Origin: a virus
Taxonomy: Duplodnaviria > Heunggongvirae > Uroviricota > Caudoviricetes
Length of the DNA stretch: 64,000 nucleotides
Reading direction: 5' to 3' (one strand)
IMG/VR virus record: IMGVR_UViG_3300032220_001761
Coordinates: 1,134 to 65,133 of that record
Both the position numbers and the translations under genes were made by a program. The notes beneath the pieces are model-generated. The model searched no databases. It had not been told where the DNA came from and was given only the letters and a program-made list of their open reading frames with translations. Below, one piece after another: positions 2,068-57,420 of this stretch. Within the stretch, counting starts at the first letter, position 1; each line of letters starts with the position of its first letter.

Positions 2068-2484
2068 TTATGTATTCTCTACTGTGTGTGGGATCAATAC
2101 TCTAATACAAGTTTGCGGAAGTCTGCAATTTTTTAGATAGTTATTGATGTATCCCATAATGTTTGCTGATCCTATAGGATTAGCACTGTGTGTAACAGTC
2201 AGAGGTAATTTTTTACCTGTCGATATGCTTTGATCAACAAGCCATTTTGCACAATCGTATCCGGTTTTTTCAGTAATGTTATCGTAGTCTAGAACATAGT
2301 TCTTAGATACATTACCGAAATATTCTTTTATTGCAGAATCCCCAAGGTCATGATCGAGCGAGATTTTTTCTATATTTTCCATCCCAATTTTGCTGACTGT
2401 TTTTACAAACTCGTGATAGTTTCTACAAATGATCCATCCGCTTTCAATTGGTGTTCGTATATCGTCTAAGTAAATGTTTTCCAT
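2068..2484 (-). CDS. hypothetical protein
   Basis: 138-aa ORF. 4-bp spacing to neighbours in a co-directional block. Confidence 0.45.
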   Translation of the reverse strand: MENIYLDDIRTPIESGWIICRNYHEFVKTVSKIGMENIEKISLDHDLGDSAIKEYFGNVSKNYVLDYDNITEKTGYDCAKWLVDQSISTGKKLPLTVTHSANPIGSANIMGYINNYLKNCRLPQTCIRVLIPHTVENT

Positions 2485-9302: not shown

Positions 9303-10298
9303 TTATCTAGGACCAAGGAAGCCTAAATTACCGCCTCTTTTTATTTTAGGAGCCTTTTTCATATCTGTAAGATTTCCTAGAGCTTCTGAAAAATCTTTTC
9401 CCATTACAATAACAGATATGATTAATTCTTTAAGATGAGATAATGACATACCCTCGGTTGATTCTATCCAAACAGGCATATCTACATTACTAAGATCCTC
9501 TTCAGATAGCTTATTTTTTATGTATGCTTCTCTAATTTCTTTAGAAGGCATTTCAACTTGATATCTTCTATCAAATCTTGAAGGTCTGTTAGTTATTCTT
9601 TCTTGTAGTTTTTCCGGATAGTTAGTGGTTGCTATATAAACAACATTTTCGATTTGCTTAACTCCATCAAGGATATTTAAAAGCTTGGTTGTCGAATAAC
9701 GGTCTTCACCAGCAAGAGCATCAATATCCTCAAGAATAACAATTAAAGGTCTTTCTGGCTCGATCTTACGAATGGTTGGAATAAATTCAACGAAAGATTT
9801 AAAATCGTCTTCCTCCTTAATGTTTATTACAATTCCGTTCTCTCTATCGATTAATTTCTTTATACAAAGCTGTATTATCCCTGATTTTCCACACCCAGGT
9901 TCTCCCCATAAAAGTATACCTCTTTTGTGTACGAAGTTGTATTTTCTGTAAACATCTTTTTTGTCCCAAAATAGCTGTATATCGCTAAGGATACTTTGTA
10001 TCTCTGGTGATGGCAATTCGTAAAGTTCATCTACCTTCAATTTTTGTTTAACCATGACATGGGTCTGAAGGTTAGAATTCCATATGATCTCATAGAGACC
10101 AGATGGAACTTTCGGTATCGAAACGTAAGAAGGGGCAAATGTCTCATTTTGAAGTATAGACCATTCAGTTGGAGATTGGATATCTATGTTATCTAATCCT
10201 TCCTGGTCCATTATATAGTCGTCTATAATGTGGTTATTTCTCATATTTTTAATTAAGCGGTTTATACCTGACTGCCTCATCCCTCTCTTATTTTTCAT
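9303..10298 (-). CDS. AAA+ ATPase (classic AAA clade)
   Basis: Walker A GEPGCGKSG, Walker B IVILEDIDA, second region of homology NRPSRFDRR with arginine fingers. Confidence 0.8.
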   Translation of the reverse strand: MKNKRGMRQSGINRLIKNMRNNHIIDDYIMDQEGLDNIDIQSPTEWSILQNETFAPSYVSIPKVPSGLYEIIWNSNLQTHVMVKQKLKVDELYELPSPEIQSILSDIQLFWDKKDVYRKYNFVHKRGILLWGEPGCGKSGIIQLCIKKLIDRENGIVINIKEEDDFKSFVEFIPTIRKIEPERPLIVILEDIDALAGEDRYSTTKLLNILDGVKQIENVVYIATTNYPEKLQERITNRPSRFDRRYQVEMPSKEIREAYIKNKLSEEDLSNVDMPVWIESTEGMSLSHLKELIISVIVMGKDFSEALGNLTDMKKAPKIKRGGNLGFLGPR

Positions 10299-11397
10299 TC
10301 AATAGAAACTTGTTACTTATAGCCTTGAACGAGATTTTTCTGTTCTTGCTCCTCATAACAACTCCCTCACGATCGAAATGCTGATTAAGAATTGATTTTC
10401 CATCAGCATATTTTAAAATCTCTTCTATTGTAGAAGGGAGAATATAATTTGTTTCTATTTTTGGAACTGTTTCTAAGCCTAACACATTAATAGTTTCCTC
10501 GAATTCATTTAGACCTGCATACTCATGATTATCAATATTAAATACGTTGAAGAAGTATACTTTTTGTCCCTTAATTTTATAAGGATTTCCTTGTATTCCC
10601 TCTCCCACTAATTCACCTTGGAAAGATACATTGTACCCTAGAGATTTCATCTTATTTTCTAGATTCATTTCCCTTGCTACTCTCCAGAATGTATTTCCTT
10701 CTGTTTCCAAAAGTTCTAAATTTCTAGAGCAAACACCAAATACACCGTCATTATAGTAGAAGGTTGAAGATGATCCATCAAGTTTTTCAGAAACGTAAAA
10801 TCCATCAGAAAACTCTTCTCTCCATTTTTCTACCTCAGAGCTTAGATTTTGTATTCTCTCCTCGTCGGTTTTTGGTATGAAAGAAGGAAAAAGACCTTTA
10901 GCAAGTCCAGCTAATTCTGCTGGCATAGGTGGCTCGTATTTAACGATACCAAGTACTTCCGTAAGATCCTCTCCTTCTCTTACAGGAACCATGTCTTTAG
11001 GTGTTATCAAAACTCCGTTTGGCTCTATAGCAAAAAAAGTACCTTCTTCTAAAACCAATGCAGTTTCAGAGAGCCTATAATTTGCAGAGTTGATAGCATC
11101 CTTTAGTGGTATTATCAATCCTTGAGAAACCTGCCCTCTAAGTTTGATTGTCTTTAATCTGAATCCCTCAGACCCATCAGCCATTTTTTTATAGGATGAC
11201 TTACGTAGAAATTCGAACTGCTCCTTTATAGGAAGAAATGAATCAATCTCGCAATAAACTGCTAGATCTCCAACTTTATGTCCTACATTTTTTGCTACGA
11301 CCACTTTCCATCCGTTTACAATTGCTAACTCTATAGCATCTGCACCTTCGATAGGAAGAATATCTTTTATCTTTTGTATACTTGCTAGTTTTCTCAT
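10288..11397 (-). CDS. ATP-dependent RNA ligase (Rnl family, N-terminal OB-like domain plus nucleotidyltransferase domain)
   Basis: Ligase motif I EKLDGSS (KxDG), motif IV EGVV, motif V KISFKAISNKF. N-terminal ASIQKIKDILPIEGADAIELAIVNGWKVVVAK resembles the DraRnl/Pab1020-type N-domain. Confidence 0.7.
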   Translation of the reverse strand: MRKLASIQKIKDILPIEGADAIELAIVNGWKVVVAKNVGHKVGDLAVYCEIDSFLPIKEQFEFLRKSSYKKMADGSEGFRLKTIKLRGQVSQGLIIPLKDAINSANYRLSETALVLEEGTFFAIEPNGVLITPKDMVPVREGEDLTEVLGIVKYEPPMPAELAGLAKGLFPSFIPKTDEERIQNLSSEVEKWREEFSDGFYVSEKLDGSSSTFYYNDGVFGVCSRNLELLETEGNTFWRVAREMNLENKMKSLGYNVSFQGELVGEGIQGNPYKIKGQKVYFFNVFNIDNHEYAGLNEFEETINVLGLETVPKIETNYILPSTIEEILKYADGKSILNQHFDREGVVMRSKNRKISFKAISNKFLLNEK

Positions 11398-12421: not shown

Positions 12422-13294
12422 ATGAAGGATTTCAAGATAAATATTAGGTACACGGACACATCTGAAAACCTTTCAAGATATTTCTCAGAAGTTAGTAAAC
12501 ACAAGATTCTGAGCCCAGATGAAGAGGCAGAATTAGCATTTAAAGCAAAAGAAGGGGATCCAATTGCTAAGGATAAAATAATAAAGTCCAACCTCAGATT
12601 TGTAATTACAGTTGCAAAATCATACGCTTCAAAAAATTCTCCACTGGAAGATTTGATATCAGAGGGAAATAAAGGATTAGTAGAAGCTATAGAAATCTTT
12701 GACCCAACAACAGGATTCAAATTTATAAGCTATGCTGTTTGGCACATAAGAAAAAATATATTCGTATATCTTAATAATCATTCCCGAATGGTAAGACTTC
12801 CTCAGAATGTTTTAAGCGAGATGAAGAAGGTAGAAAAAGTACAGGATTACTTTGTAAGAAATTATGGAAGGGAAGGGAATTATAAAGAGATAATTGAATT
12901 GATGGAAGAAAATGGTATGGGAATACCATCAGATAGAATATTAGACATCATAGAAAATAAGCCAGTTACGATAGCTTTAGATTCTGGTAATTCTAGTGAG
13001 AATGAAGCTCTTTCCCCTATAGACTGGCTAAAATCGGAAGATGATATAGACGTTACTATTTTTAGAACTGACGAAAAAGAAATTGTTGATCAAATACTTC
13101 CTTACTTAAATGATATAGACAGGAAGATCGTTAAAATGAAATACGGTTTAGATGACAAGGGTGAAAGATCCTATTCGGAAATAGGCATGTACTTCGAAAG
13201 ATCCAGTGAATGGGTTAGATTATCTCTCAGAAAAGCAATTAAGAGAATGATGGTAATAGCAAGAAGGAAAAAAATAGAATTACCTTTTAGATAA
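12422..13294 (+). CDS. RNA polymerase sigma-70 family factor
   Basis: Region 2 DLISEGNKGLVEAIEIFDP..GFKFISYAVWHIRKNI and region 4 helix-turn-helix YSEIGMYFERSSEWVRLSLRKAIKRM. Confidence 0.8.
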   Translation: MKDFKINIRYTDTSENLSRYFSEVSKHKILSPDEEAELAFKAKEGDPIAKDKIIKSNLRFVITVAKSYASKNSPLEDLISEGNKGLVEAIEIFDPTTGFKFISYAVWHIRKNIFVYLNNHSRMVRLPQNVLSEMKKVEKVQDYFVRNYGREGNYKEIIELMEENGMGIPSDRILDIIENKPVTIALDSGNSSENEALSPIDWLKSEDDIDVTIFRTDEKEIVDQILPYLNDIDRKIVKMKYGLDDKGERSYSEIGMYFERSSEWVRLSLRKAIKRMMVIARRKKIELPFR

Positions 13295-15677: not shown

Positions 15678-17945
15678 ATGAAAAACTTTTTGGTTTTATT
15701 GTTGTGCTTTATAGCACACGTGGGATTTTCGCAAAATCTATTTAAGGACGTAAACAAGCAGGTAATGCTTGTTCCAACACCAGGACAAGAAACGTCTCTG
15801 GTAAATTTTGTATCTGAAAGTAATTCTGAGATTGTATTACACTTTAAGGAACTAAATTGGTATTTGATAAAAATACCAGACGAAGTTTCCCAGGACGAAT
15901 ATCTTTCATATTGTAAGGGTAAAAATTTCATAAAAGCATTTTATAAGGATGAGGTTATGGAATACAACAGGGATTATATTCCAAACGATCCTAATTTTAA
16001 TCTATCCTGGCACTTAAAACAAGCATCAGATGCAGATATAGATGCAGACGAGGCTTGGGATTTAGTATCTAATAATGGTGGCTACACAACAGTTGCAGTT
16101 TTTGATGGTGGATTCGAGCCATTGCACGAGGATCTAGTAGGTAACTACAATAACATTTTTAATGCTGTTACAAATCTTCCTTATAATGGAGCTTTTGCAA
16201 ATTCATTTGATAGACATGGGGTTGCTTGTTCTGGAGTTATAGCTGCTGTTACCAATAATGGAATTGGTGTATCAAGCGTGGGAAATAATCTGGTTCAGGT
16301 TATGCCAATCAATATAATGTCGGGTGTTTATAGTGGAGGATCTTTTAATACATCTTCTTCGATTCAAATTAATGCTATAAATGCTGCAATGGCTAATCCA
16401 ACTTGTGTTGCTATATCTATGTCATACAGCGGATCTTCTTTTAGCCAAGCACTAAATGATGCCTTTTTGACCGCTAGTACAACAGCTAGAGGTGGAAAAG
16501 GAATACTATGTTTTGCAAGTTCTGGTAATGGATATTCAGGAACTGCAACAAATTATCCAGCTTGGTACCCTTCAGTATGGGGTGTTGGAGCTACAGGTCA
16601 ATCAGATACAAAAGCATCTTTCTCCAATTTTGGTCAAATATGTGACATATCAGCTCCAGGATCTTCAATAGTAACAACTGATAGAATAGGTTCAGAAGGA
16701 TATAGCTCCACTTCGAATTATGCAACAGTATCAGGAACTTCTTTTAGTTGTCCAATGACAGCTGCAGCATCAGCATTGGTTGCTTATAGAAATAGTACAT
16801 TAACTGCCGATCAGATTATGTCTATACTATCCCAGACTTGCGATAAAGTTGGAGGATATTCATACACAAATAATCCAAATTTTCCATATTCGACTAGATC
16901 TAATGAATTAGGATACGGAAGAATTAATCTGAAGAATGCAATATTAATGACCCCAGACAACGGAGGGGGAACACCTCCTCCTGTTACAAATCATGATATT
17001 GTTCTAATAAACCCATCAGTTTCTCCACAGACTGGATTATATGGATCTACAATTTCTATATCATGTACACAATTAACAATGAATCCTTCATTGGGAAGTG
17101 TAAATAGTATTATACAATATAGATATTCTTCCAATACAACATGGGGTGATGCTGACGACATTATAATAGGAACTGACACAACGGTTCTTGGTGGAGGTGT
17201 TATATCTGGGACTGAAAATATTTCCTTTATAGTTCCAAGCCAGTCCGGAACTAAATACATTCTAATTAAGTCTAATTTTGATGGATCTATAATAGAATCT
17301 AATTATAGCAATAATCTAGGTGTGGCTAATTTTATACCTATAGATCCTAATATAGCTCTTGCTGATTTGTCGGTGGAATATTTACTTCCTACAACTTCTG
17401 AAATTGTTTTAACTCCTAATCAGATCTCTGTCAATTTTAGATGGAGATTTACAAACACAGGGACAGTTCCTATTACATCCTTCTCATATGAGAAAAAATG
17501 GGTAAATTGCACAGGAAGTTTTATTTTTAGCTGTTACTCAAATTCGTCATGGAGCGGAAATCTTTTACCTGGTCAATCAGTAGTTCTTCCAGGACAGAAT
17601 TCTTGGATTTCATCAAATACTTGCCCACAGCTATCTAATCCTTCCTCGACAGTTTGTTTTGTTCCTTTAGGTGGATCTAACACATACAGGACAACGATTG
17701 TTTCAGTGAATGGATCAACTGGAGATTATAATTCTTTAAATAACATAAGGGATATTAACTTTTCAAGACCTCTTCCTGCAGAAGGATCTGTTGATCTCTA
17801 CAGTGTAGATCCAACATACGTTGAAATATACACAGTTACAGGCAGTCTTTTAGATAAAGCAAGATGGGATGAATTACCTAGCGGGATCTATCTAGTAAAA
17901 GAGATTTATCCAGATGAAACTAGAGTGATAAAAAGAGCAAAATAA
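15678..17945 (+). CDS. secreted subtilisin-like serine protease (S8) with C-terminal beta domains and a type IX secretion (Por) C-terminal sorting domain
   Basis: Signal peptide MKNFLVLLLCFIAHVGFSQ. Catalytic triad contexts VAVFDGG (Asp), HGVACSGVIAA (His), GTSFSCPMTAAAS (Ser). CARDB-like segment. C-terminus ELPSGIYLVKEIYPDETRVIKRAK resembles the T9SS CTD. Confidence 0.8.
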   Translation: MKNFLVLLLCFIAHVGFSQNLFKDVNKQVMLVPTPGQETSLVNFVSESNSEIVLHFKELNWYLIKIPDEVSQDEYLSYCKGKNFIKAFYKDEVMEYNRDYIPNDPNFNLSWHLKQASDADIDADEAWDLVSNNGGYTTVAVFDGGFEPLHEDLVGNYNNIFNAVTNLPYNGAFANSFDRHGVACSGVIAAVTNNGIGVSSVGNNLVQVMPINIMSGVYSGGSFNTSSSIQINAINAAMANPTCVAISMSYSGSSFSQALNDAFLTASTTARGGKGILCFASSGNGYSGTATNYPAWYPSVWGVGATGQSDTKASFSNFGQICDISAPGSSIVTTDRIGSEGYSSTSNYATVSGTSFSCPMTAAASALVAYRNSTLTADQIMSILSQTCDKVGGYSYTNNPNFPYSTRSNELGYGRINLKNAILMTPDNGGGTPPPVTNHDIVLINPSVSPQTGLYGSTISISCTQLTMNPSLGSVNSIIQYRYSSNTTWGDADDIIIGTDTTVLGGGVISGTENISFIVPSQSGTKYILIKSNFDGSIIESNYSNNLGVANFIPIDPNIALADLSVEYLLPTTSEIVLTPNQISVNFRWRFTNTGTVPITSFSYEKKWVNCTGSFIFSCYSNSSWSGNLLPGQSVVLPGQNSWISSNTCPQLSNPSSTVCFVPLGGSNTYRTTIVSVNGSTGDYNSLNNIRDINFSRPLPAEGSVDLYSVDPTYVEIYTVTGSLLDKARWDELPSGIYLVKEIYPDETRVIKRAK

Positions 17946-18737: not shown

Positions 18738-19328
18738 TCACTTAATAATATAATCCTTATACGAACTAGTTTTAGGCTTTTCGTTGGCGAAGTAGTATAC
18801 CTCTGTTACTTCCCCGTATTTTATTTCTTTAGTAAATCCACTAGGTACAGTTGCTCCAGTAGGTAGTTTTATAGATTTCTCATCAAATTTAAGGATGATA
18901 TGAACGCTAACTTTCGTTTTTAAAGCAATCTCCCTTTCGTGTATTTCCAATAATCTCCATGCCCCTCTATTTAGGTATTGATCTTGTAGGGCACAATTTA
19001 GATAAGAGAATGTTTTTTGTATTGTAGCTCTGTCGCAAGAAAAATCCGCAGCAGGAGCCATATGTCCTTTATCGTAAATATTATTTTCGTAATCCTCCTT
19101 AGATGAGGTATGAATGCTATCGTTTGTGTAAAAATCTAATCCTGCTCTAGAAGCTTTACCTCCTGGACACTGAACGTTGTACCAAACCTCTAATGGCTGC
19201 TCAAGATCTTCCGAATAGATCACTGTATAAATCCCTGCATCTACTTTTCTTGGTTGTCTATCATCAGTTGTAAGGGATAATAAAAAGAATGATAGTATTA
19301 ATAATGATAGAATTAATAGTTTTTTCAA
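18738..19328 (-). CDS. secreted DNA/RNA non-specific endonuclease (Serratia-nuclease/EndoG family)
   Basis: Signal peptide. Active-site motif DKGHMAPAADF (DRGH-type) followed by NCALQDQYLNRGAWRLLE (N..PQ..LN.G.W..LE). Confidence 0.7.
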   Translation of the reverse strand: MKKLLILSLLILSFFLLSLTTDDRQPRKVDAGIYTVIYSEDLEQPLEVWYNVQCPGGKASRAGLDFYTNDSIHTSSKEDYENNIYDKGHMAPAADFSCDRATIQKTFSYLNCALQDQYLNRGAWRLLEIHEREIALKTKVSVHIILKFDEKSIKLPTGATVPSGFTKEIKYGEVTEVYYFANEKPKTSSYKDYIIK

Positions 19329-19672
19329 TTTCTGAACTTATGTGGGTAGAGCATTCTTAATTCATGCCCCATTGGTATATCTTTTTTTCTTATACCAAAT
19401 ATCTTTTCCTCCGGACAAGGATCTAATGAATTTTGTAATCTTCCATTAATCCACGTCTCAATGGTTTTAAAATTATTGTTGCAAGCCCAAGTCTCAATTG
19501 ATCTGTTCCAGATTGATCCCTCATTGAAAGGGAATCTTATATTTGTTCCGTTAACAACCTCTTTTATTTGGCTTCCTTGCAATTCTACAGTGATTTCTCC
19601 AGCCATTTTATGTCTGAGCATCATTGTTCTTTGATTAAAGTTTTCGTATAGTTCTAAATTTTTCATTACCAA
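19325..19672 (-). CDS. hypothetical protein
   Basis: 115-aa ORF, 4-bp overlap. Confidence 0.4.
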   Translation of the reverse strand: MVMKNLELYENFNQRTMMLRHKMAGEITVELQGSQIKEVVNGTNIRFPFNEGSIWNRSIETWACNNNFKTIETWINGRLQNSLDPCPEEKIFGIRKKDIPMGHELRMLYPHKFRN

Positions 19673-20238
19673 GGTCTGCTTGATTTTATTCCGAGTAATT
19701 TGCGATACCTCGCTACGTTACAAGCCCAATACCTAGCTTTCCATTTAGGTCCTGGACTATCACAACCCATTCTTTTTCTGAAGGATCTAGCTTTAGCAGG
19801 GTCATTATTATTAACTCTCATCCCCGGCTCTCCGAATCCAACCTTAACTACGTTTCCTTTCTCGTTTTTAGTATAGACCGCAAATTTTCTTGGACCTGAT
19901 GGTGTTCTAAAAGGTCTGTTAAGATTAACTTTTTTTCCTCTATACTCTGCTTCGTTAACATCCTCAATATCTTCAAACGGGATGTCTAGAAAAACTATTT
20001 TGTTTTCGAAGATAGCAGTTTTACCAGCATCAGTACCTATTAACCAGATCTCATCATCTGTAAGGCCTATCTTTCCATCATTGTATAAATTTCTTGCCTC
20101 ACAAACAAGTCCTAGCCATGCTTCAGAGTCCACTCTGAAAACGCTCTCAAAAAGACCTATATTTTGGTCAAAATGGTACGAAAGATTCTCTGATATTGAA
20201 TGATCTCCAAAATTATCAAATTCGTCTATATTTCTCAT
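19666..20238 (-). CDS. hypothetical protein with basic C-terminus
   Basis: 190-aa ORF. C-terminal RSFRKRMGCDSPGPKWKARYW. Confidence 0.45.
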   Translation of the reverse strand: MRNIDEFDNFGDHSISENLSYHFDQNIGLFESVFRVDSEAWLGLVCEARNLYNDGKIGLTDDEIWLIGTDAGKTAIFENKIVFLDIPFEDIEDVNEAEYRGKKVNLNRPFRTPSGPRKFAVYTKNEKGNVVKVGFGEPGMRVNNNDPAKARSFRKRMGCDSPGPKWKARYWACNVARYRKLLGIKSSRPW

Positions 20239-20258: not shown

Positions 20259-21449
20259 TTAATCTAATGAATAGAACTTCCTTCTTATATTGATCAACAT
20301 AGAGGAAGTTAAATCTGGATCAACAGTATCTGGTAGATCTGATTCATTAAATAAACGATCGATTTCTAGAATGTCATTTTCAGCACGATCGATTAAGCTT
20401 TGCAAATCAACTTCACCTCTACGAATGGCCAACAGTTCTTGAGCATTTTCTCTTCTAACTAAGATACCTTTACCCTGAGCAATTTCTTTAGCCATTTCAA
20501 GTAGCCTACGACAGTGCATCATGTTTTTACCATCGATCTTTTGACCGTGAGTTTCAACATCAACCCATCTTTGTAAGTTTCTTTTATCTAGCCATTCTTG
20601 GTATTCGTTGTAATCTTTACAATGTTGAGTGTATCCATCTTTATTGTAAATGATATTACAGATCGGTTTTTCTCCTTTAGGAATAGAAGATAAACGTAAT
20701 TGGTTCGATTCTGCTAGGTTAGATCCCTCCCCAGTTTTCACAAGACCTTTATATCCAAATCCGAAAGGTTCCCCCTTTATATTTTGAGAATCCTTTTGGA
20801 ATCTACGTAATTCTCCTGGGATAGATTCACTAAAACAACAATAAGCAATACTATCAAAGAAAACTGCATATAGGTCTCTGGCGTTAGGAACATTAGAAAC
20901 CCCACAGAATTTTTCTTCAAATCCTTCCTTCTCGTTCCATATCTTCCATGGGATTGATTTTTCACCTTCAATAACATAGCAGAAATCAAGAACATCCTTT
21001 CTGGTAACCTTTTCTTTTTCCCAGTTTTGCTTCTTATCCTGTCCTTTTGCCTTCTTGATCTGTTGGATAGCATATCCACCAAACGAATTAGAGCACTTTT
21101 TAGTGATAAATTGGTCCCGTAGCTCAATTATTTCCCCTATCAATGGGTGTTTGTATAGAATACAGTCTTCTGGTGTGTTTAAGAGCTCTAAAATAGTTGG
21201 ATTATTAGAAGCAACTAATTCTAGAAATCTTTTGACCTCATAAAAAACTGTGTCGTTCTTGTCGTCATTGATCTGCTCTTTATAATGGAAGCCTAAGATG
21301 TCGTCTATCTTTTGTATATAAACACCAGCATAGTCTATATCAGAGGTAGGTAAAGCAGTACCATAAGCCTGTGATCCTCTTTTAACAATAAGTAAGGGCT
21401 GAGCCCCAGGGGACTTGCTTTCTATCAAGTCCAAAAATTCTTGTAACAT
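20259..21449 (-). CDS. polymerase-beta-superfamily nucleotidyltransferase (minimal NTase N-domain plus helical C-domain)
   Basis: NTase signature KRGSQAYGTALPTSDIDYAGVY (GS...SDxD). Confidence 0.5.
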   Translation of the reverse strand: MLQEFLDLIESKSPGAQPLLIVKRGSQAYGTALPTSDIDYAGVYIQKIDDILGFHYKEQINDDKNDTVFYEVKRFLELVASNNPTILELLNTPEDCILYKHPLIGEIIELRDQFITKKCSNSFGGYAIQQIKKAKGQDKKQNWEKEKVTRKDVLDFCYVIEGEKSIPWKIWNEKEGFEEKFCGVSNVPNARDLYAVFFDSIAYCCFSESIPGELRRFQKDSQNIKGEPFGFGYKGLVKTGEGSNLAESNQLRLSSIPKGEKPICNIIYNKDGYTQHCKDYNEYQEWLDKRNLQRWVDVETHGQKIDGKNMMHCRRLLEMAKEIAQGKGILVRRENAQELLAIRRGEVDLQSLIDRAENDILEIDRLFNESDLPDTVDPDLTSSMLINIRRKFYSLD

Positions 21450-21856
21450 TATAGCAATTTTAAATGATTAGTAACAGGATCTATTTCATCCGCCCAATTT
21501 GGTCCAATGGCAATACATGTTTTTGTAGGTACACCACTAAATTCAGTAAGACCCGCATCAGTGATTATAGATGCAATAAGTCCCGCATCCTTAGCCTTTT
21601 CGTATATCTCTATTAATTCAGATTCGGAATCTACTGAAACACAAACCTTAGTAAATAACCCATTGATCCAAGACTCCATTGGGGTTCCACTTTCAAGTAT
21701 GAGTGTTTTTTCTTGAATTTCTTTTCTGTGCGACAATATAACCATTCGATCTAGTACTGCTGCCATTGATGCGTGTGCACCTTGAGCTACCATCTTGCCT
21801 TTTCTCATATTCAGGTCTTTGCGCATGACAATAACCTGCTTTGCTATTCTTTCCAT
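21449..21856 (-). CDS. peptidyl-tRNA hydrolase, PTH2 family
   Basis: QVIVMRKDLNMRKGKMVAQGAHAS, ITDAGLTEF...TKTCIAIGP, VTNHLKLL, all matching PTH2 conserved blocks. Confidence 0.75.
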   Translation of the reverse strand: MERIAKQVIVMRKDLNMRKGKMVAQGAHASMAAVLDRMVILSHRKEIQEKTLILESGTPMESWINGLFTKVCVSVDSESELIEIYEKAKDAGLIASIITDAGLTEFSGVPTKTCIAIGPNWADEIDPVTNHLKLL

Positions 21857-23739: not shown

Positions 23740-24072
23740 ATGTGTCTAGGTTATGTTTATCTAATAGTCGAGTCAGACCAAAACGGGAACGAAAAATATA
23801 AAATTGGGGTGACTAAAAAGAACCCAGAGGAAAGGGTTAAGAAATTAAGAACTGGAAATTCCAACGAACTTTTTGTAATAAGGAAATATGAAAGTTACAA
23901 TTATAGGAAAATAGAAAAATGGCTACATAGAAAGTATTCAGGACAAAGAACAATATCTATGAATGAATTTTTTAACCTAACAGATGATCAAGTAGCAAAC
24001 TTTATAGATGACTGTAAAAAAATAGATAAAATTATAAGCTATATGCTTGAGAATAACCCGTATTTTAAATAG
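23740..24072 (+). CDS. GIY-YIG-like / T5orf172-domain protein
   Basis: GYVYLIVESDQNGNEKYKIGVTKKNPEERVKKLRTGN...EKWLHRKY matches the GIY-YIG/T5orf172 core (GYVY..KIG.T....R...L). Confidence 0.55.
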   Translation: MCLGYVYLIVESDQNGNEKYKIGVTKKNPEERVKKLRTGNSNELFVIRKYESYNYRKIEKWLHRKYSGQRTISMNEFFNLTDDQVANFIDDCKKIDKIISYMLENNPYFK

Positions 24073-24074
24073 AT

Positions 24075-24641
24075 CTAATCTTTTATTCCAAAGTTATTTA
24101 AAAGAGATCCGCCAGATCCAGCATAAGCATCAACCCATTCTTGATTTAACATCGCATTAATTAGCCTTACAAATCTAGTTCTTGTTTTCATTTCTTTTCT
24201 TAGCATAGAACCAAATTCTATTGGACGATCTTCCATAATATCAAGCATATCTAAGAATGCTTCTATAACTTTTGTTTTCTCATCCTCAGTGCCTTTACCA
24301 AAAATAGTATAGGATTCTTGGAAGATTTTAAGCTGAGCTTCTAGATCTTGTTTTTCGTCTATCCATTTTTCCTCCTGTTTACCCCAACTTTCTATTTCGG
24401 ATTCAAATTTGGAATTTTCTTTTTCTAGTTTTGAATATGAATCTTCTAATCCATAGATCTCGTCGTCTTTTTTCTCGACAGTTTTTTCCAGATCCCTAAT
24501 ATCCTCTTCTAGCTCGTCTATTCTATCCACGAGATCAGAATTTTTATCCTCTAAAGATTCTATCTGGTCCAACAGTTTTTGAATGTAATCGTTAGATACT
24601 TCCTCCTCGTTTAATTTATATTCGCTAAAATTCTTTATCAT
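24075..24641 (-). CDS. coiled-coil protein
   Basis: Heptad-rich acidic sequence (LEDKNSDLVDRIDELEEDIRDLEKTVEKKDDEI). Confidence 0.45.
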   Translation of the reverse strand: MIKNFSEYKLNEEEVSNDYIQKLLDQIESLEDKNSDLVDRIDELEEDIRDLEKTVEKKDDEIYGLEDSYSKLEKENSKFESEIESWGKQEEKWIDEKQDLEAQLKIFQESYTIFGKGTEDEKTKVIEAFLDMLDIMEDRPIEFGSMLRKEMKTRTRFVRLINAMLNQEWVDAYAGSGGSLLNNFGIKD

Positions 24642-25222
24642 TTCTTTTCCTTCCTATTCTTTTTAGCTTGTTGATATAATTTCTTATCACTCATCTTGGT
24701 AGTTTTACCGCCGGTTACAAAAGAATTAACTCTTGCCATAGCCCATTGCTGTGGGGTTGTTCCTGGAATATGACCTGTTTTCCAAGCAGCATATCCTCTT
24801 TTCCATACCTGAGTTAGAATACCCTGAGGAAACCCTGTTTTATCTGATTTATTTTTTAACGCTTTTCTTACAGGACTGCTTGGTGAGCTAGCTCCCTCCA
24901 TTAAAAACCCCTCAATCTCTAATATTTCAGACTCTGACATATTGTTCAGCTCTTGAATAAATTCATTTTCAATTTCCTCCATTACTTCCATAAACTGGTA
25001 AGGATCTGTCATTAAATTTTCGCCAAACATTTGCTTGTATTTTTTAGTGTATTTACTAGATTTTGTATCTACAGGTTTACCTTTTCCTGCTTTTCCCGAC
25101 TTATAATCAGCGTCCCATGGTCCATAAGCAGAGGAGTCATCATCGGCTTTATGTCCGTGTTTTTTGATCTCCCTCTTCATTATGTTGGGATTTTTTGTGA
25201 GGTATTTTTTTGGAAGTTTCAC
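24638..25222 (-). CDS. hypothetical basic protein
   Basis: 194-aa ORF, 4-bp overlap with downstream gene. Confidence 0.45.
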   Translation of the reverse strand: MKLPKKYLTKNPNIMKREIKKHGHKADDDSSAYGPWDADYKSGKAGKGKPVDTKSSKYTKKYKQMFGENLMTDPYQFMEVMEEIENEFIQELNNMSESEILEIEGFLMEGASSPSSPVRKALKNKSDKTGFPQGILTQVWKRGYAAWKTGHIPGTTPQQWAMARVNSFVTGGKTTKMSDKKLYQQAKKNRKEKK

Positions 25223-25724: not shown

Positions 25725-26244
25725 ACAACAAATCCTTGGAGAAGTATTTACACCTGTTTTTATGACAGAGGATGAATTCGAAAAAGGATACAAAGAATCT
25801 ATATTTTGGACAGATAAGGATTTCATGTCAGAGTATAGAAAGCACATAGCTGCAATGTCTCATGTATCTGAATGTGCGAAGATATACATTCTTAAAAATT
25901 GGGCGAAGGTCAAGGATTGGAGCGAATTAGATGTGGTTATAGTACATGGTCCTTCTGGAAAAATGACGGAATACTATAATTATGTTCCTAGAGAAATTAA
26001 CAACGACCATAAAATAAAGGAAGGGGCTTATTCAAATCTGTTAAAAGAAATTGATGAGAAAAACAAGCTAAAGCATAATCCCATAAGGGAATTTAACGAG
26101 GTTATCCTTGACCCCACAGACGGTGATTTTTCAGTTACAGTAAATGGCAACGAAGAGCACTGGTGGATACAAGACGAAGCTGTTATAATAATAGCAGATT
26201 ATATTGAAGAACAATTAAAAAAACAAGATAATGAGGAAGCTTAA
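25663..26244 (+). CDS. hypothetical protein (start probably the Met at 25702)
   Basis: 193-aa ORF with lysine-rich N-terminus. Confidence 0.45.
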   Translation: MSISKKQKKKLKSMKKKEEYKQQILGEVFTPVFMTEDEFEKGYKESIFWTDKDFMSEYRKHIAAMSHVSECAKIYILKNWAKVKDWSELDVVIVHGPSGKMTEYYNYVPREINNDHKIKEGAYSNLLKEIDEKNKLKHNPIREFNEVILDPTDGDFSVTVNGNEEHWWIQDEAVIIIADYIEEQLKKQDNEEA

Positions 26245-27127
26245 CTTAGCAAATCCAGAAAAAAGTGGGATAGAATTTCAAATTTCTAAATTCCCAGATG
26301 GTCAGCAATCAGTGACTATAAATTCTCCGTTCTTAGCATCAACAGAACCTATAACAATAATCTCTAGAATGAACTCGTTCCGAGATCTTGAGCTTATCAT
26401 CTGTGCTAATGTCGCATTAAAAGAAATAGGAACTAAAGAAATCCATCTCTTTGTACCTTATTTTTTAGGAGCAAGATCAGATCGTAAATTCGTAGACGGA
26501 GGATCTAACTACCTAAAAGATGTCATCTGTCCTATCATCAACATGCAGAATTTCGAAACGGTTACGGTTTTAGATCCTCACTCTGATGTTTTAGAAGCTT
26601 GTCTTAAAAATTTCAGAAAAGAAACCAATATTGAATTTGTAAGAAAAGCTCTTACAAAGATCGATAATACAAATGATGCTAGAGAAAAAATGGTTATCAT
26701 TTCACCTGATGCAGGAGCAATGAAAAAGATCTATCAGGTTGCAGAAGCATTCTCGTTAGACAAAATTGTTATCGCTGCTAAACACAGGGATTTGAAATCT
26801 GGAAAGATTACTCACACGGAAGTACCAGATCTCAATAAATATTCACCAGATTCAAACTTTGTCATTATAGATGACATCTGCGATGGAGGTAGAACATTTA
26901 CTGAAATATCTAAAGTAATCAAATCTCATGTCTGGCCGAGGGACGAATATTTCAGAGGTAAGATCTATTTGATTATTACCCATGGTATTTTCTCTGCTGG
27001 TCTTTTAGATTTGAGTAGAAACTTCGACAATGTATTTACAACAAACAGTGTAAGGGATCTTGAGGTCGAGGATTTTTCAGATTACACTGTATCAAAAGAT
27101 TTTGTAATCCAATTTGAAGTTGTCTAA
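26231..27127 (+). CDS. ribose-phosphate pyrophosphokinase (PRPP synthetase) family protein. Candidate ADP-ribose pyrophosphokinase (Adps) of an NAD+ reconstitution pathway
   Basis: Prs-like blocks: FPDGQ (FsDGE), LELIICANVALKEIGTKEIHLFVPYFLGARSDRK (PYfgYaRQDRK), ISPDAGAMKK, and PRPP-binding loop VIIDDICDGGRT. Confidence 0.7.
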   Translation: MRKLNLANPEKSGIEFQISKFPDGQQSVTINSPFLASTEPITIISRMNSFRDLELIICANVALKEIGTKEIHLFVPYFLGARSDRKFVDGGSNYLKDVICPIINMQNFETVTVLDPHSDVLEACLKNFRKETNIEFVRKALTKIDNTNDAREKMVIISPDAGAMKKIYQVAEAFSLDKIVIAAKHRDLKSGKITHTEVPDLNKYSPDSNFVIIDDICDGGRTFTEISKVIKSHVWPRDEYFRGKIYLIITHGIFSAGLLDLSRNFDNVFTTNSVRDLEVEDFSDYTVSKDFVIQFEVV

Positions 27128-27129
27128 TT

Positions 27130-27498
27130 ATGAAAACAGAATTTAAAATCTCATCTATAGTCGGTATAAAAACCATTAATGAGAGAGAAAATACGTCATT
27201 TCAATGGTTTGATGAAATTCCAAGTAAATCTACATTTTTTGGAATGTTCAAATCTGAAAAAGTATCAGAAGGATTTGGAGAGATTGGGTACAATACGAGG
27301 TATACGGATCTGGACCTAATAAAAAGAGGTTATAACGTAAGTGGAAAGAAGGTATTTTACAGACCATATGCTACAGTCTATTTGGAACACGAGTACGAGG
27401 TACAAAAAACATTTAGATCCAATGAAGAAATGTCAGCATGGGTAAACTACCTAAAGACTGAAAATGGTGGAAATTTTGAAATTGTTAATCACAAATGA
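27130..27498 (+). CDS. hypothetical protein
   Basis: 122-aa ORF between the Prs-like and macro genes. 4-bp overlap downstream. Confidence 0.45.
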   Translation: MKTEFKISSIVGIKTINERENTSFQWFDEIPSKSTFFGMFKSEKVSEGFGEIGYNTRYTDLDLIKRGYNVSGKKVFYRPYATVYLEHEYEVQKTFRSNEEMSAWVNYLKTENGGNFEIVNHK

Positions 27499-28019
27499 GA
27501 TACGAAGAAATACAGGGGGATCTAATCAAATTAGCCAAAGAAGCTAAATTTGATGTTATAGCTCACGGATGCAATTGTCATTCACAAATGGGAGCTGGTT
27601 TAGCACCTCAAATGGCTAAAGCTTTTGGATGTGATAAATTCGAAATGGAATCTTGGGGATCCACTATTGAAAAACTTGGATGTATAGATTTTGAAACATT
27701 GGTATTAGGAAAAAATTCAATTTGGAGTTTAGCTGATGCAGACAACAAAGAAGGTGATCCTGAACTAGCAGTAGTTAATGCCTACACCCAATATAACTAT
27801 GGAAGAAATCACTCGGATGGGGATTTAAAACCTATAGATTATGAAGCACTTACCCTTTGCATGAGAAAAATGAATAAAATTTTTACAGGCAAACATATAG
27901 GTCTTCCACAAATAGGTGCAGGATTAGCAGGAGGAAATTGGAACAGAATTAAAAACATTATTCAAACAGAACTAGTTGACTGCAAAGTCACTGTAGTCAT
28001 TTACAACAAATTAGTATGA
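27495..28019 (+). CDS. macro domain protein (TARG1/OARD1-like ADP-ribose processing)
   Basis: VIAHGCNCHSQMGAGLA and GLPQIGAGLAGG match the OARD1-type macro ADP-ribose pocket (hGCNC..mGaGiA ... G.GlaGG). Confidence 0.65.
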   Translation: MRYEEIQGDLIKLAKEAKFDVIAHGCNCHSQMGAGLAPQMAKAFGCDKFEMESWGSTIEKLGCIDFETLVLGKNSIWSLADADNKEGDPELAVVNAYTQYNYGRNHSDGDLKPIDYEALTLCMRKMNKIFTGKHIGLPQIGAGLAGGNWNRIKNIIQTELVDCKVTVVIYNKLV

Positions 28020-28471
28020 CACTAAAAGACAAAATTCAAAAAGAATTCGTTGAAGCTATGAAAGCTAAAAACGATGTTGCTAAATCTGCCCTTAGCGGAT
28101 TAAAGGCAAAAATTACAGAGGCTGAAAAGGCTAACGGAAACGTATCCCTTGGAGATCCAGAGGTTGTTAAAGTCGTAAGCTCCGCAATCAAACAAAGAAA
28201 GCAATCTGTTGATGCTTTTGAGCAAGCTGGAAGAACTGATCTAGCCAATAAAGAAAAAGGCGAGATTATAGTATTGGAAACATTCCTTCCTAAGCAAATG
28301 ACAGAGGACGAGATTGAAAAGGCCGTAAGAGAAATCATTGCAAATATGCCAGAAGTTGCTACCAATGCTAATGCTCTTCAAGGAAAAACAATGGGTGCTT
28401 TCAACAAAGCTTATTCAGGTCAAGCAGATTCTAAAGTTGTAATGGAGATCATTAAAAAAGTAACAACATGA
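28016..28471 (+). CDS. GatB/YqeY domain protein
   Basis: DKIQKEFVEAMKAKNDVAKSALSGLKAKI...QRKQSVDAFEQAGRTDLANKEKGEIIVLETFLP...ANALQGKTMGAFNKAYSGQADSKVV follows the YqeY/GatB C-terminal domain pattern. Confidence 0.65.
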   Translation: MTLKDKIQKEFVEAMKAKNDVAKSALSGLKAKITEAEKANGNVSLGDPEVVKVVSSAIKQRKQSVDAFEQAGRTDLANKEKGEIIVLETFLPKQMTEDEIEKAVREIIANMPEVATNANALQGKTMGAFNKAYSGQADSKVVMEIIKKVTT

Positions 28472-28692
28472 AACCTATAACAGCTAAAGAAGCTAGAGAA
28501 ATAACTGATGCTTATTCCGAAGCGGGAATGGACGATATTCTAAAAAATATCAGAGAAGGTGCTGCTGGTGGAAATGACCATTTAACAATGGACTACGTTT
28601 CAAAAGGTCAAAAAAAGGTTTTGGAATCTCTTGGATATGGTGTTAATTGGCATGACATGGGGAGAGATGGGTATTGGAAAATTTCATGGTAA
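28468..28692 (+). CDS. hypothetical small protein
   Basis: 74-aa ORF, 4-bp overlap. Confidence 0.4.
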   Translation: MKPITAKEAREITDAYSEAGMDDILKNIREGAAGGNDHLTMDYVSKGQKKVLESLGYGVNWHDMGRDGYWKISW

Positions 28693-28736
28693 AAACAAGA
28701 AAATATTAATCAATACTATTTACACTGGAGTGGATA

Positions 28737-28925
28737 ATGGATAAAAAATTAGAATCTGAGTACATCTATTGGGTAAAGAGGCTAAGGCTCGAAGACCTTC
28801 ATACAGAAATGCAAAATATAGAGTGGGGGATTCAAAATATAAAATCCGAAAAAACTTTAGAAAATGTCCTTGTCAAAAAAGGAATACTCGAAAAAGAATA
28901 CGAAACAAGAAATAACAAGAAATAA
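28737..28925 (+). CDS. hypothetical small protein
   Basis: 62-aa ORF. Confidence 0.3.
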   Translation: MDKKLESEYIYWVKRLRLEDLHTEMQNIEWGIQNIKSEKTLENVLVKKGILEKEYETRNNKK

Positions 28926-28926
28926 A

Positions 28927-29418: not shown

Positions 29419-29430
29419 AAACAAAACAAA

Positions 29431-40715: not shown

Positions 40716-41214
40716 GTCTTAAGGGTGATAAAAATTTTCTCAATGCAACTATTTTTTCGGCTTCCTGTGGATCTGATGAAAAATTCTCGACCCAAGAATC
40801 ATAAGGGGGGATAAAATCACCGCCTCCGGCCTTGGCGTAGTCTGAAACGATCTTTTCGTAATCTGTCCAGTTTTCCTTATCCCAAACTCTATCTTCTACC
40901 AAGAAAACAACAGCTGTTAATTGATCTCCTAGATCTGGCTCATAGAATAAAGCGACCTTCTTTTCACCAATCAGCATTCTTAAAAATGAAGCATGTTGAT
41001 TAAGAGTACCAGGAGAAATTGGATTTGTACTTGTTGTGCCTCCATTTAAGATGATAAAGGTCTTATCCTCTTTAGCCCATCTTTGGTATTCAGGTGTTTC
41101 TCCATAGAGTAACCCATACTCAACTACTGCATGTCCAAATTGTATCCCTTGTTGGATAGGACTGATGTTATATGGGACTAACCCATACATTCTATATTTT
41201 CTTTCTGTATTCAT
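40708..41214 (-). CDS. hypothetical protein, possibly a divergent PTH2-fold protein
   Basis: YGLVPYNISPIQQGIQFGHAVVEY and ALFYEPDLGDQLTAVVF loosely parallel the PTH2 blocks (DL.M..GK.AAQ..HA and DAGRTQI..GS.TV.AIGP). Confidence 0.35.
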   Translation of the reverse strand: MNTERKYRMYGLVPYNISPIQQGIQFGHAVVEYGLLYGETPEYQRWAKEDKTFIILNGGTTSTNPISPGTLNQHASFLRMLIGEKKVALFYEPDLGDQLTAVVFLVEDRVWDKENWTDYEKIVSDYAKAGGGDFIPPYDSWVENFSSDPQEAEKIVALRKFLSPLRLA

Positions 41215-41948
41215 TGCTTTTCAAATGTTGGTTTTAACCATAATCCCCTACCAAAAACTAGTTTAGTAAATCCTGGAAGTACTTCTTCTACAGATCTGAA
41301 AAGCTCTAGTGTTCTAACAGTATCAGCTTTCATCATCTTGTAAACTTCCTCCCTGATTCTTTCAGCACTAACCACCTTTTCTAATTTTTCAAGGATATCA
41401 GGCTGGTTCATTGCATTCATGATGTCAAGATGAATATCAAATCCCTTAGTAATTGAGAATCTCAAAGCTCTTAAGAATCTCAAAGGATCGTCCATCATAG
41501 TTTTGTATGCGGGCAGGGGGGTTCTCAAAATTCTTCTCTCGAGATCCTTTACCCCTCCGAATAGATCTATCAGATTACCATCGACATCTTTTGCCATGGC
41601 ATTAAGAGTAAAATCTCTTCGGATCAAATCGTCTTCAAGTGTTCCTAGAACAAGAATAGGGTTTCTTGTCCCTTCTTGGTATCCTATCTCTTTCCTAGCC
41701 ATAACAAAGTCAGCGACTAGGCCATTGAATTTATGATCCTTTGGAAACTTAGCTCTAATCGTAAACATTTCTGGAGTAGACAAGAATATTTCGTATCCCC
41801 TTTCTTTCATCCATTGCGTCATCTCATCGAATCCCTCACCTACAGTCTTGTTTAGATCATCAAGAACAAAGGTAAAGTCAATATCCTTAGATTCGATACC
41901 TAGTATCTCATCTCTTACGCATCCTCCTACAAAAAATATCTCTGGCAT
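41211..41948 (-). CDS. tRNA nucleotidyltransferase (CCA/CC/A-adding enzyme, class II head-and-neck only)
   Basis: IFFVGGCVRDEILG..SKDIDFTF (GGxVRD...DxD), RRDFTLNAMA, DPLRFLRALRF. Confidence 0.8.
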   Translation of the reverse strand: MPEIFFVGGCVRDEILGIESKDIDFTFVLDDLNKTVGEGFDEMTQWMKERGYEIFLSTPEMFTIRAKFPKDHKFNGLVADFVMARKEIGYQEGTRNPILVLGTLEDDLIRRDFTLNAMAKDVDGNLIDLFGGVKDLERRILRTPLPAYKTMMDDPLRFLRALRFSITKGFDIHLDIMNAMNQPDILEKLEKVVSAERIREEVYKMMKADTVRTLELFRSVEEVLPGFTKLVFGRGLWLKPTFEKQ

Positions 41949-56988: not shown

Positions 56989-57420
56989 TCAAGTGAAACT
57001 TTTAATTTCTTTAGATAATTCTCTTTCTTTTATTGAATTTCTTTTATCGTAATTCTTTTTACCTTTAGCAAGGGAAACCTTCAATTTAATTTTACCTCTT
57101 TCATTAGAAAATATCAGTGTTGGGACTATCGTAATTCCTTGATCTAATCCTCTTTCCAATTTGTTAAGTTCCTTTCTTTTAAGTAAAAGCTTTCTTACCC
57201 TTAAAGGATCAGGTGAAAAATCTCCCATGGGAGATATGTTTAATCCCTTTATGTAAAGCTCGTTTTTTTCTAAATAACAAAAAGCATCCACCATAGATAC
57301 TTTACCTGCTGCTATCGATTTTACTTCGGATCCAAATAATTGGATGCCAGCTGTGTATTCTTCGATAAAGAAATAATCGAAAGAAGCTTTTCTATTTTTT
57401 ATGTGTATATTCTTAGGCAC
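56989..57420 (-). CDS. smpB: SsrA-binding protein SmpB
   Basis: Near-collinear with bacterial SmpB: NRKASFDYFFIEEYTAGIQLFGSEVKS..AGK, RVRKLLLKRKEL, GKIKLKVSLAKGKKNYDKR and basic C-terminal tail. Confidence 0.85.
   Translation of the reverse strand: MPKNIHIKNRKASFDYFFIEEYTAGIQLFGSEVKSIAAGKVSMVDAFCYLEKNELYIKGLNISPMGDFSPDPLRVRKLLLKRKELNKLERGLDQGITIVPTLIFSNERGKIKLKVSLAKGKKNYDKRNSIKERELSKEIKSFT

Follow-up and report, generated by a model that had tools for sequence, protein, structure and literature searches.

The stretch of viral DNA analysed here (hereafter the window, 64 kb in full) carries on its minus strand two open reading frames that have one base in common, a 135-aa frame for a PTH2-type peptidyl-tRNA hydrolase (21449..21856) and a 396-aa frame for an RlaP-family, Pol-beta-superfamily RNA nucleotidyltransferase (NTase; 20259..21449). 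In the direction of transcription PTH2 (21856..21449) is the upstream gene and the NTase the downstream one. The minus-strand letters, read directly, give TAATG at 21447..21451, which combines the PTH2 stop codon TAA (21451-21449) with the NTase start codon ATG (21449-21447), and the junction reads ...AAATTGCTATAATGTTACAAGAA... A preliminary description of this DNA had placed the start of PTH2 against the stop of the NTase; the two genes do meet, with the ends reversed, so that the PTH2 stop overlaps the NTase start. Judged from their high-scoring HMM matches, both ORFs are genuine, intact genes and not chance ORFs. The pair sits inside a tightly packed minus-strand gene run, and immediately downstream of the NTase (19325..20238, minus strand) follow two genes of unknown function, d190 (190 aa) and d113 (about 113 aa), neither of which has a Pfam, NCBIfam or PADLOC match; d190 matches only phrog_7595, a family of unknown function. 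A scan for sigma-70 promoters and terminators returned counts at or below shuffle expectation. The overlap most likely results in co-transcription of the two genes in this phage, and perhaps in their translational coupling. GC and GC3 of both genes are similar to those of the neighbouring genes and of the remaining window, and a recent foreign origin of PTH2, checked by composition, accordingly left no signal.

The assignment of the upstream gene to PTH2, made in the preliminary description, was borne out by a full-length match to PF01981 (aa 6-135 on profile positions 2-115 of 115; E 8.3e-33, 113.5 bits against a cutoff of 23), by TIGR00283 (99.6 bits, cutoff 82) and by phrog_1866 (E 3e-36), while the score against the stricter NF003314 equivalog (106 bits) is below its cutoff of 126. 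In the PDB, the sequence that matches best is that of M. jannaschii Pth2 (2zv3, E 8e-23), with which the protein has identical motifs in the HMMER alignment. Like this enzyme, S. solfataricus Pth2 (1xty) and human PTRH2 (1q7s), it fits PF01981 and TIGR00283 end to end, and it keeps the GKGK..AQ..HA and DAG.TE...T..IGP motifs of archaeal and eukaryotic Pth2. The active-site residues, which had been singled out for checking, are present: in an alignment with an S. solfataricus Pth2 sequence, whose numbering is self-consistent, K21, D100 and T104 fall opposite K18, D86 and T90, and these positions are at least 95% conserved among 80 phage PTH2s. We take K18 and D86 to be the catalytic Lys and Asp (Fromant et al. 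2005), and the assignment of these roles to the phage residues also relies on conservation. Relative to archaeal Pth2, the phage protein has some 11-15 extra residues that follow the first helix (about aa 40-55); greater length is general among phage PTH2 matches, whose median is 131 aa against 115-121 aa for archaeal Pth2. Mycobacteriophage and jumbo-phage PTH2s (for the latter, Iyer et al. 2021) are 45-66% identical to it. Its conserved Lys, Asp and Thr motif residues are all in place, and the 135-aa protein is, as far as its sequence can tell, a bona fide Pth2.

The NTase was expected to be PF10127-like, and the RlaP profile PF10127 indeed recognizes it at a score far higher than the gathering cutoff (65.2 bits against 23, E 9.8e-18), with a match that spans aa 15-138, or only profile positions 17-144 of 249. 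A precomputed PF10127 match is carried by all 120 of its closest database homologues. Comparison with T4 NrdC.11 by hhalign (96.9% probability, E 1.4e-10) brings the GS...DxD...D motifs of the two proteins into register, with 34% identity across 109 columns, and the GS...SDxD signature noted earlier was found as G25-S26 and S36-D37-I38-D39. G25, S26, D37, D39 and D66 are invariant among 40 homologues, and D66, which falls opposite an Asp in T4 NrdC.11, is presumably the third carboxylate of the Pol-beta core. Over a greater length, the protein matches phrog_388 ('nucleotidyltransferase'; aa 17-391, E 1.6e-51) and, by Foldseek, phage NTases in BFVD (full-length, E down to 6e-14). It is the N-terminal 125 residues that carry the RlaP assignment, through Pfam and T4 NrdC.11; the C-terminal two-thirds match only these uncharacterised phage NTase families. 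On these alignments the 396-aa protein is an RlaP-family NTase with an intact GS/DxD/D catalytic core.

An NTase that does not act in RNA repair, that is, one of the aminoglycoside, MNT-antitoxin or signalling/defence (Hailong HalB- or CD-NTase-like) type, is very unlikely at this locus. Its best solved-structure matches are kanamycin nucleotidyltransferase and Hailong HalB, and there is a marginal match to MntA; however, the structural matches are weak (E ~0.02-0.06, TM 0.2-0.35, 10-16% identity) and span the generic Pol-beta core only, the aminoglycoside identity (KNTase) being rejected at a Foldseek E of 0.019 and a TM of 0.23-0.34. The MNT antitoxin was likewise rejected, with MntA at 15.2 bits against a cutoff of 60 and PF01909 at 17.7 bits against 21, and so was membership in a defence system, as at E <=0.01 no PADLOC model matched the NTase, PTH2 or any of the four genes closest to the pair. 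In favour of RlaP are the Pfam score and the profile match to T4 NrdC.11, which a preprint counts as a member of the RlaP family (bioRxiv 10.64898/2025.12.29.696909). The aminoglycoside or antitoxin identity, named at the outset as the one that would detach the gene from RNA, was thus not found.

RlaP enzymes add one or two NMPs at an RNA 3'-OH, not to DNA, with a preference for mimics of cleaved tRNA and for Mn2+, and PfRlaP and PaRlaP are the only members with known biochemistry (bioRxiv 10.64898/2025.12.29.696909). The characterised enzymes, unlike the long phage subfamily, are bacterial and encoded in RtcB operons. In the PfRlaP crystal structure, the NTase domain and a C-terminal helical domain form a cleft, and the last helix packs back on the NTase domain. 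The AF2 model of the phage protein (mean pLDDT 76) predicts a similar order, in which the NTase domain is followed by a large helical C-terminal region, so that the enzyme would not be 'minimal', as it had been called. Helices are confident at aa 307-392 (pLDDT ~90), and pLDDT falls below 50 at aa 137-148, 232-255 and 276-305; segments modelled with low confidence and specific to the subfamily lie in its middle part (about aa 137-305). A PDB sequence search gave no meaningful match and a PDB Foldseek search gave weak matches to the generic Pol-beta core, with an RlaP structure absent from both. A further likeness to the RlaP systems is that this phage genome also encodes a 3'-OH/5'-phosphate RNA ligase. 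The differences are that the phage NTase has 396 aa, compared with 249 positions in the Pfam RlaP profile and 336 aa in T4 NrdC.11, that only the N-terminal third or so aligns with either, and that its gene lies outside the operon of its ligase, 8.9 kb away.

This ligase is an ATP-dependent enzyme of the DRB0094/Rnl5 type with an N-terminal OB domain and a ligase domain (10288..11397, minus strand; PF21189 E 2e-37, PF09414 E 9e-23, and 202 bits against a cutoff of 151 for the TIGR02306 RNA_lig_DRB0094 equivalog). It is on the same strand as the NTase with opposite-strand genes between them and in a separate transcription unit, and two relatives (L003 and L093) have homologues of it about 7-9 kb from the NTase. 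The Rnl5-type ligase is the likely ligation partner of RlaP. A CCA-adding enzyme, SmpB and GatB/YqeY had also been listed elsewhere in the window. SmpB, the trans-translation ribosome-rescue factor, was recovered at 57016..57411 (minus strand) by tblastn with an E. coli SmpB query (42% identity, E 2e-25) and by TIGR00086 (149 bits, cutoff 119); the 5' end of this ORF lacks an ATG, and the 64-kb window yielded no tmRNA gene. A YqeY or GatB-C-terminal-like protein is encoded at 28016..28471 on the plus strand (PF09424 E 2e-35, PF02637 E 6e-7). The CCA enzyme was found only as a 245-aa protein with a class II NTase head domain, CCA-adding or poly(A) polymerase-like (41211..41948, minus strand; PF01743 E 8.7e-22), whose top NCBIfam matches are CCA tRNA nucleotidyltransferases and which, for lack of the body and tail domains, stays far below every CCA/PcnB equivalog cutoff; in one relative (L094), a homologue of this protein is encoded 1.2 kb upstream of RlaP. 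Finally, a cREC_REC (cyclic-phosphate-processing receiver) domain protein at 2068..2484 (minus strand; PF20274 E 6e-23) is a candidate processor of 2',3'-cyclic phosphate RNA ends, a role in RNA end processing having been proposed for cREC (PMC7824862).

Such a combination is already on record. A jumbo-phage toolkit of RNA ligase, RlaP, CCA, PTH2 and cRec was described in 2021 (PMC7824862 section 3.4.9), in which RlaP mirrors RNA ligases, co-occurring with them at the level of the genome, and PTH2 is assigned to jammed ribosomes. The proposal of the preliminary description that the phage runs a programme for keeping tRNAs and ribosomes working fits both this toolkit and the Rnl5 ligase, CCA-like protein, SmpB, YqeY and cREC protein of the window. 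The T4 Pnkp/Rnl1 pathway against the PrrC anticodon nuclease has the same underlying idea, phage-encoded restoration of tRNA cleaved by a ribotoxin; however, neither Pnkp nor Rnl1 was identified in the window, and end-healing would need other enzymes. Calcineurin-like phosphoesterases and the cREC domain protein are end-healing candidates only.

The preliminary description further called the NTase directly coupled to PTH2, which is taken here as a claim that the two work as one unit. A reading of this kind is that they form a two-step module acting on one ribotoxin-cleaved peptidyl-tRNA, in which PTH2 would free the peptide, RlaP would restore the anticodon-loop nucleotide(s) and Rnl5 would seal the break, with TAATG ensuring matched expression. 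As a phage system it would parallel the PrfH(RFH)-RtcB repair and rescue operons of bacteria, some of which carry an accessory Pol-beta NTase (Burroughs & Aravind 2019, PMC6514570) and so provide a precedent for a peptidyl hydrolase, an RNA ligase and a Pol-beta NTase in one operon. A peptidyl-tRNA-hydrolysing protein stands beside a Pol-beta NTase in both cases, with an RNA ligase in the genome context, and the proposed logic of peptide release, nucleotide restoration and ligation is the same. On the other hand, the hydrolases are unrelated (a release-factor fold there, the PTH2 fold here), as are the ligases (RtcB versus ATP-dependent Rnl5), the NTase of those operons has, according to its authors, no specific relationship to RlaP (PMC6514570), and those operons are conserved, whereas the PTH2-RlaP adjacency is not.

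This last point was examined from both gene sides. Searching around 80 phage PTH2 loci with five divergent RlaP queries detected an RlaP-like gene within 10 kb in four, only one of which is near-adjacent. Among about 90 RlaP loci surveyed, PTH2 lies within 10 kb only in a clade of at least 79% identity, and at none of the roughly 80 loci with <=72% identity. The one-base overlap recurs in the relative at 88% identity (L087/L088); at 82% it gives way to a gap of 175 nt, at 79% (L003) to a gap of 1.15 kb that holds two unrelated small ORFs, and at a syntenic locus of 72% identity (L090-L093) the NTase and its flanking genes are kept and PTH2 is missing. The steadier companions of the NTase are d190 and d113, which follow it, by tblastn synteny, in L087-L093 and L003 whether PTH2 is present or not, and are syntenic with it in all relatives of at least 72% identity except L094. 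In two large contigs that hold both PTH2 and RlaP genes, these are about 47 kb and 300 kb apart. A conserved PTH2-RlaP operon was therefore rejected, and the overlap is, on these comparisons, a recent and lineage-specific arrangement. Because it is not conserved, it offers no evidence of an obligate two-enzyme machine, and the claim of a directly coupled unit is not supported.

The two-step module is unlikely, and the same survey supplies most of what speaks on either side. In its favour is the overlap shared with the 88% relative. Two further observations leave some room for selection on linkage: in three diverged genomes (79-88% identity) PTH2 stays no more than 1.2 kb from the NTase, and in L003 the ligase, the CCA-like gene, RlaP and PTH2 are loosely grouped inside about 8-8.5 kb. 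However, the linkage is gone outside the narrow clade, a syntenic relative does without PTH2, the 79% relative tolerates two small ORFs between the genes, and both genes are far apart in other huge-phage contigs. In addition, the two enzymes act at opposite ends of the tRNA, PTH2 on the acceptor-end ester and RlaP on the anticodon-loop break, and a physical hand-off is therefore not required. That PTH2 and the long-form RlaP might be translationally coupled within the narrow clade alone, deacylation of ribotoxin-damaged peptidyl-tRNA being followed by nucleotide restoration and Rnl5 ligation in an independently evolved analogy to the PrfH-RtcB-NTase operons, appears quite unlikely.

It is also possible, although unlikely, that PTH2 mainly counters tRNA-acylating GNAT toxins (TacT/AtaT type) or generally boosts tRNA recycling to serve the phage's own supply of tRNA, and has no functional link to the NTase. 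The bacterial Pth reverses the TacT acetylation of glycyl-tRNA (PMC9241777), but it is of the Pth1 type, not PTH2. Recycling would agree with the commonest context of phage PTH2 genes, which is the tRNA array (37 of the 80 loci have tRNA genes within 10 kb); in contrast, PTH2 here lies outside any such array, as tRNA/tmRNA and Rfam scans of the whole 64-kb window found nothing, leaving no local tRNA array or ncRNA to which the pair could be tied. A role of this kind is compatible with, and not exclusive of, the explanation that we prefer.

In the preferred explanation, to which we give a probability of roughly 60%, PTH2 and RlaP are separate known parts of a huge-phage toolkit against ribotoxins of the host or of rival phages, and have only recently been brought adjacent. 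PTH2 would act on peptidyl-tRNA or N-acyl-aminoacyl-tRNA that is lost from ribosomes or trapped on jammed ones and would hydrolyse its ester bond, returning the tRNA to the pool, while a break extended by RlaP would be resealed by a 3'-OH/5'-phosphate RNA ligase such as the Rnl5-type enzyme encoded in the window. SmpB, the CCA-like enzyme and YqeY may serve the same general purpose. The clade from which this DNA comes consists of huge phages, which probably infect Bacteroidota; at the DNA level, megablast of 18-24 kb against 50,697 phage records gave no match.

As the toolkit has already been described for jumbo phages and the adjacency is confined to the closest relatives, the finding is largely ordinary, and it would be wrong to take the PTH2-RlaP overlap for a new system. 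The practical value of the locus is modest. It is one more huge-phage example of an anti-ribotoxin set (RlaP, Rnl5 ligase, CCA-like enzyme, PTH2, SmpB and cREC), and it illustrates that gene order in this set is fluid even among phages that are 70-90% identical. Metagenomes are very rich in the long (~395 aa) phage form of RlaP, with more than 4,200 homologues, and this subfamily should be a reasonable target for asking whether phage RlaPs repair tRNA as has been proposed for the bacterial enzymes.

Two minus-strand genes meet at a one-base overlap, in which the TAA stop of a 135-aa PTH2 gene (21449..21856), transcribed first, shares a nucleotide with the ATG of a 396-aa nucleotidyltransferase (NTase) gene (20259..21449), transcribed second. 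The ORF listing and the raw minus-strand sequence (...TTG CTA TAATG TTA CAA..., stop at 21451-21449, start at 21449-21447) agree with the coordinates given in the preliminary description and invert its gene order, as it is the PTH2 stop that meets the NTase start. Both genes belong to a compact block of minus-strand genes that spans about 22.9 to 18.7 kb, and the coding share of the window is about 94%. A simple promoter and terminator scan gave no informative signal, and no foreign-insert signature of either gene was detected by composition. The TAATG overlap, which is evolutionarily recent, probably couples the expression of both genes in this phage.

Judged by its sequence, the 135-aa protein is clearly a PTH2, which matches PF01981 end to end (E 8.3e-33), scores 99.6 bits against TIGR00283 (cutoff 82), and also matches phrog_1866; its closest solved structure is M. 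jannaschii Pth2 (2zv3, E 8e-23). The active-site residues, whose absence had been considered beforehand, are in place: the GKGK..AQ..HA and DAG.TE / T..IGP motifs are complete, and K21, D100, and T104 align with K18, D86, and T90 of S. solfataricus Pth2, to which Fromant et al. reportedly assigned catalytic roles in 2005. These positions are conserved in at least 95% of 80 phage PTH2s. Compared with archaeal Pth2, the window PTH2 carries an insertion of about 11-15 residues, and phage PTH2 matches are usually longer (median 131 aa).

Profile matches indicate that the 396-aa protein belongs to the RlaP family (PF10127, entitled 'RNA repair pathway DNA polymerase beta family' in Pfam). An initial guess at a PF10127-like protein was borne out by an HMM search (aa 15-138; 65.2 bits, gathering score 23), and phrog_388 'nucleotidyltransferase' matched along the whole length (E 1.6e-51). 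A profile of 40 homologues, among which G25, S26, D37, D39, and D66 are invariant, matched phage T4 NrdC.11 at a probability of 96.9% (E 1.4e-10), and the GS, the DxD, and a third Asp were in register; NrdC.11 has itself been placed among the RlaPs (10.64898/2025.12.29.696909). The AlphaFold2 model has a mean pLDDT of 76 and is of low confidence in three segments mid-protein. In BFVD it matched phage NTases over the full length, with E values as low as 6e-14, and in the PDB it had only weak matches (E no better than 0.02), limited to the generic Pol-beta core of kanamycin NTase, Hailong HalB, and MNT; no RlaP structure was found for it by sequence or fold search of the PDB. The antitoxin or aminoglycoside type, raised earlier as a competing identity, was rejected: MntA reached 15 bits where its cutoff is 60, and nothing was detected in PADLOC.

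The direct coupling of PTH2 and NTase claimed in the preliminary description did not hold when conservation was tested from both sides. Among 80 viral-contig PTH2 loci, searched across 10-kb flanks with five divergent RlaP queries, an RlaP-like gene was present within 10 kb in only four and was nearby in the closest relative only; tRNA genes occurred within 10 kb in 37, PTH2 often being inside a tRNA array. On the NTase side, about 90 loci (34-88% identity) were compared. The one-base overlap is identical in L087/L088 (88%), and it is replaced by a 175-nt gap in L089 (82%) and by a 1.15-kb spacer with two small, unrelated ORFs in L003 (79%). At 72% identity and below adjacency is lost: L090-L093 (72%) lack PTH2 within otherwise syntenic flanks (upstream 154-aa gene, NTase, 190-aa gene, 113-aa gene, Endonuclease_NS, and S8 peptidase), L094 (72%) lacks PTH2 and instead has the CCA-like gene upstream of its NTase, at a distance of 1.2 kb, and none of the many loci at 69% or below has PTH2 within 10 kb. 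Two large contigs carry both genes, separated by about 47 kb in one and by about 300 kb in the other. As the NTase flanks are kept while PTH2 varies in spacing and presence, the stable unit is the NTase with its two downstream genes; PTH2 is a neighbour that changes, and its adjacency is specific to this lineage. A true two-step PTH2-RlaP module, which would be analogous to PrfH-RtcB operons that at times include an accessory Pol-beta NTase (PMC6514570), is unlikely.

The most constant neighbour of the NTase is the 190-aa gene (19666-20238, minus strand; phrog_7595), along with the 113-aa gene that follows. Among phage records, the closest are uncultured huge phages of 630-640 kb (NTase 57% identity), followed by Tenacibaculum phage PTm1 and Lak megaphages, and the window therefore derives from a huge phage. 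Putative suppressor tRNAs with a CTA anticodon (ARAGORN 'tRNA-Pyl'), or in L048 one TTA 'tRNA-Stop', occur in many PTH2-bearing phage arrays (L022, L023, L024, L026, L029, L038, L043, L048, and L054), which hints at stop-codon-recoding phages with PTH2 travelling in the tRNA array.

Pfam and NCBIfam scans assigned further genes, including a DRB0094/Rnl5-type ATP-dependent RNA ligase (10288-11397, minus; TIGR02306, 202 bits vs 151), a cREC_REC protein (2068-2484, minus), and three calcineurin-like phosphoesterases. The ligase adjoins a 331-aa AAA+ ATPase directly after it (block 9303-11397, minus), which has sub-threshold matches to anti-phage IetA/IteA models (PADLOC PDLC02196, E 4e-13); this adjacency is also seen in L003, and the two are possibly a conserved unit. 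Of the CCA-adding enzyme, SmpB, and GatB/YqeY reported initially, SmpB (about 57016-57411, minus; TIGR00086, 149 bits vs 119) and YqeY (28016 to about 28471, plus) were recovered, and the CCA-like gene (245 aa, 41211-41948, minus) amounts to a CCA/poly(A)-polymerase head-domain protein below every equivalog cutoff. The SmpB ORF lacks an ATG close to its 5' end, its frame opening just past a stop ('VPKNIHIKNRK...'), and may thus use a non-ATG start. Neither a tRNA or tmRNA gene nor any Rfam family was detected within the 64-kb window (ARAGORN, and Rfam for tmRNA), so the phage SmpB would need the host tmRNA or one encoded elsewhere.

Other cargo is diverse. A plus-strand cluster (26231-30990) that also contains YqeY suggests NAD+/ADP-ribose metabolism, with a PRPP-synthetase-like Pribosyltran protein (26231-27124), a weak Macro match (27495-28016), NADAR (28864-29415, E 6e-52), and NAPRTase/NAMPT (29431-30990); it resembles phage NAD-reconstitution counter-defence gene sets. 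A two-component pair (54394-56947, minus), which phages do not usually carry, consists of a 709-aa sensor histidine kinase (GAF, two PAS, and HATPase_c; 54818-56947) and, right after it, a 143-aa response-regulator receiver protein (54394-54825). Host-like membrane cargo forms a minus-strand row of three (45857-49286): an ABC-transporter ATPase (45857-46645), a BPD_transp_1 permease (46642-47454), and a 591-aa OmpA-domain protein (47511-49286). A 755-aa S8 subtilisin-like peptidase (15678-17945, plus; N-terminal signal peptide) and a 196-aa Endonuclease_NS non-specific nuclease (18738-19328, minus; signal peptide) are apparently secreted and are syntenic with the NTase in L087 and L090. Upstream of PTH2, a gene at 23740-24072 (plus), assigned to the T5orf172/MUG113 family through precomputed Pfam matches of its L087-L092 homologues, is alone on the plus strand within a long minus-strand block and keeps its position in relatives amid variable genes; homologues of the ORF at 24638-25222 (minus) in L087-L092 have a precomputed DUF5824 match. 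The plus strand at 12422-13294 and 31076-34343 further encodes a sigma-70 factor with regions 1.2, 2, and 4, a Band_7/SPFH protein of 619 aa, and a 308-aa protein whose match to the T4 Gp23 major capsid profile is confined to the C-terminal part of that profile (PF07068 positions 149-349).

Two Pseudomonas RlaPs were characterised in a December 2025 preprint: they add one or two NMPs onto the 3'-OH of RNA, not DNA, have a preference for Mn2+ and, as substrate, for the 5' half of a cleaved-tRNA mimic, and partly restore aminoacylation of a tRNA lacking one anticodon-loop nucleotide, and their 3'-OH product fits 5'-phosphate (ATP-dependent) RNA ligases (10.64898/2025.12.29.696909). The best-supported reading is that PTH2 and RlaP, whose family identities and catalytic motifs are evident at the sequence level, represent two independent activities with one purpose. 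From family knowledge, RlaP would replace nucleotides lost at cleaved tRNA 3'-OH ends ahead of ligation, the Rnl5 ligase would presumably reseal the restored tRNA, and PTH2 would release tRNAs stuck as peptidyl-tRNA (or N-acyl-aminoacyl-tRNA) when ribosomes jam. PTH2 might also act against tRNA-acetylating toxins, as bacterial Pth reverses TacT action (PMC9241777), which is compatible with these two independent activities and not exclusive of them. Since the jumbo-phage RNA-repair repertoire has been described by Iyer et al. in 2021 (section 3.4.9, PMC7824862), a programme of tRNA and ribosome upkeep, as first proposed for this DNA, is an established idea. PTH2 and NTase are new members of known families, and that huge phages carry both, with the functional rationale for it, has already been published; the main remaining value lies in an abundant long-form phage RlaP subfamily of more than 4,200 homologues with predicted activity.
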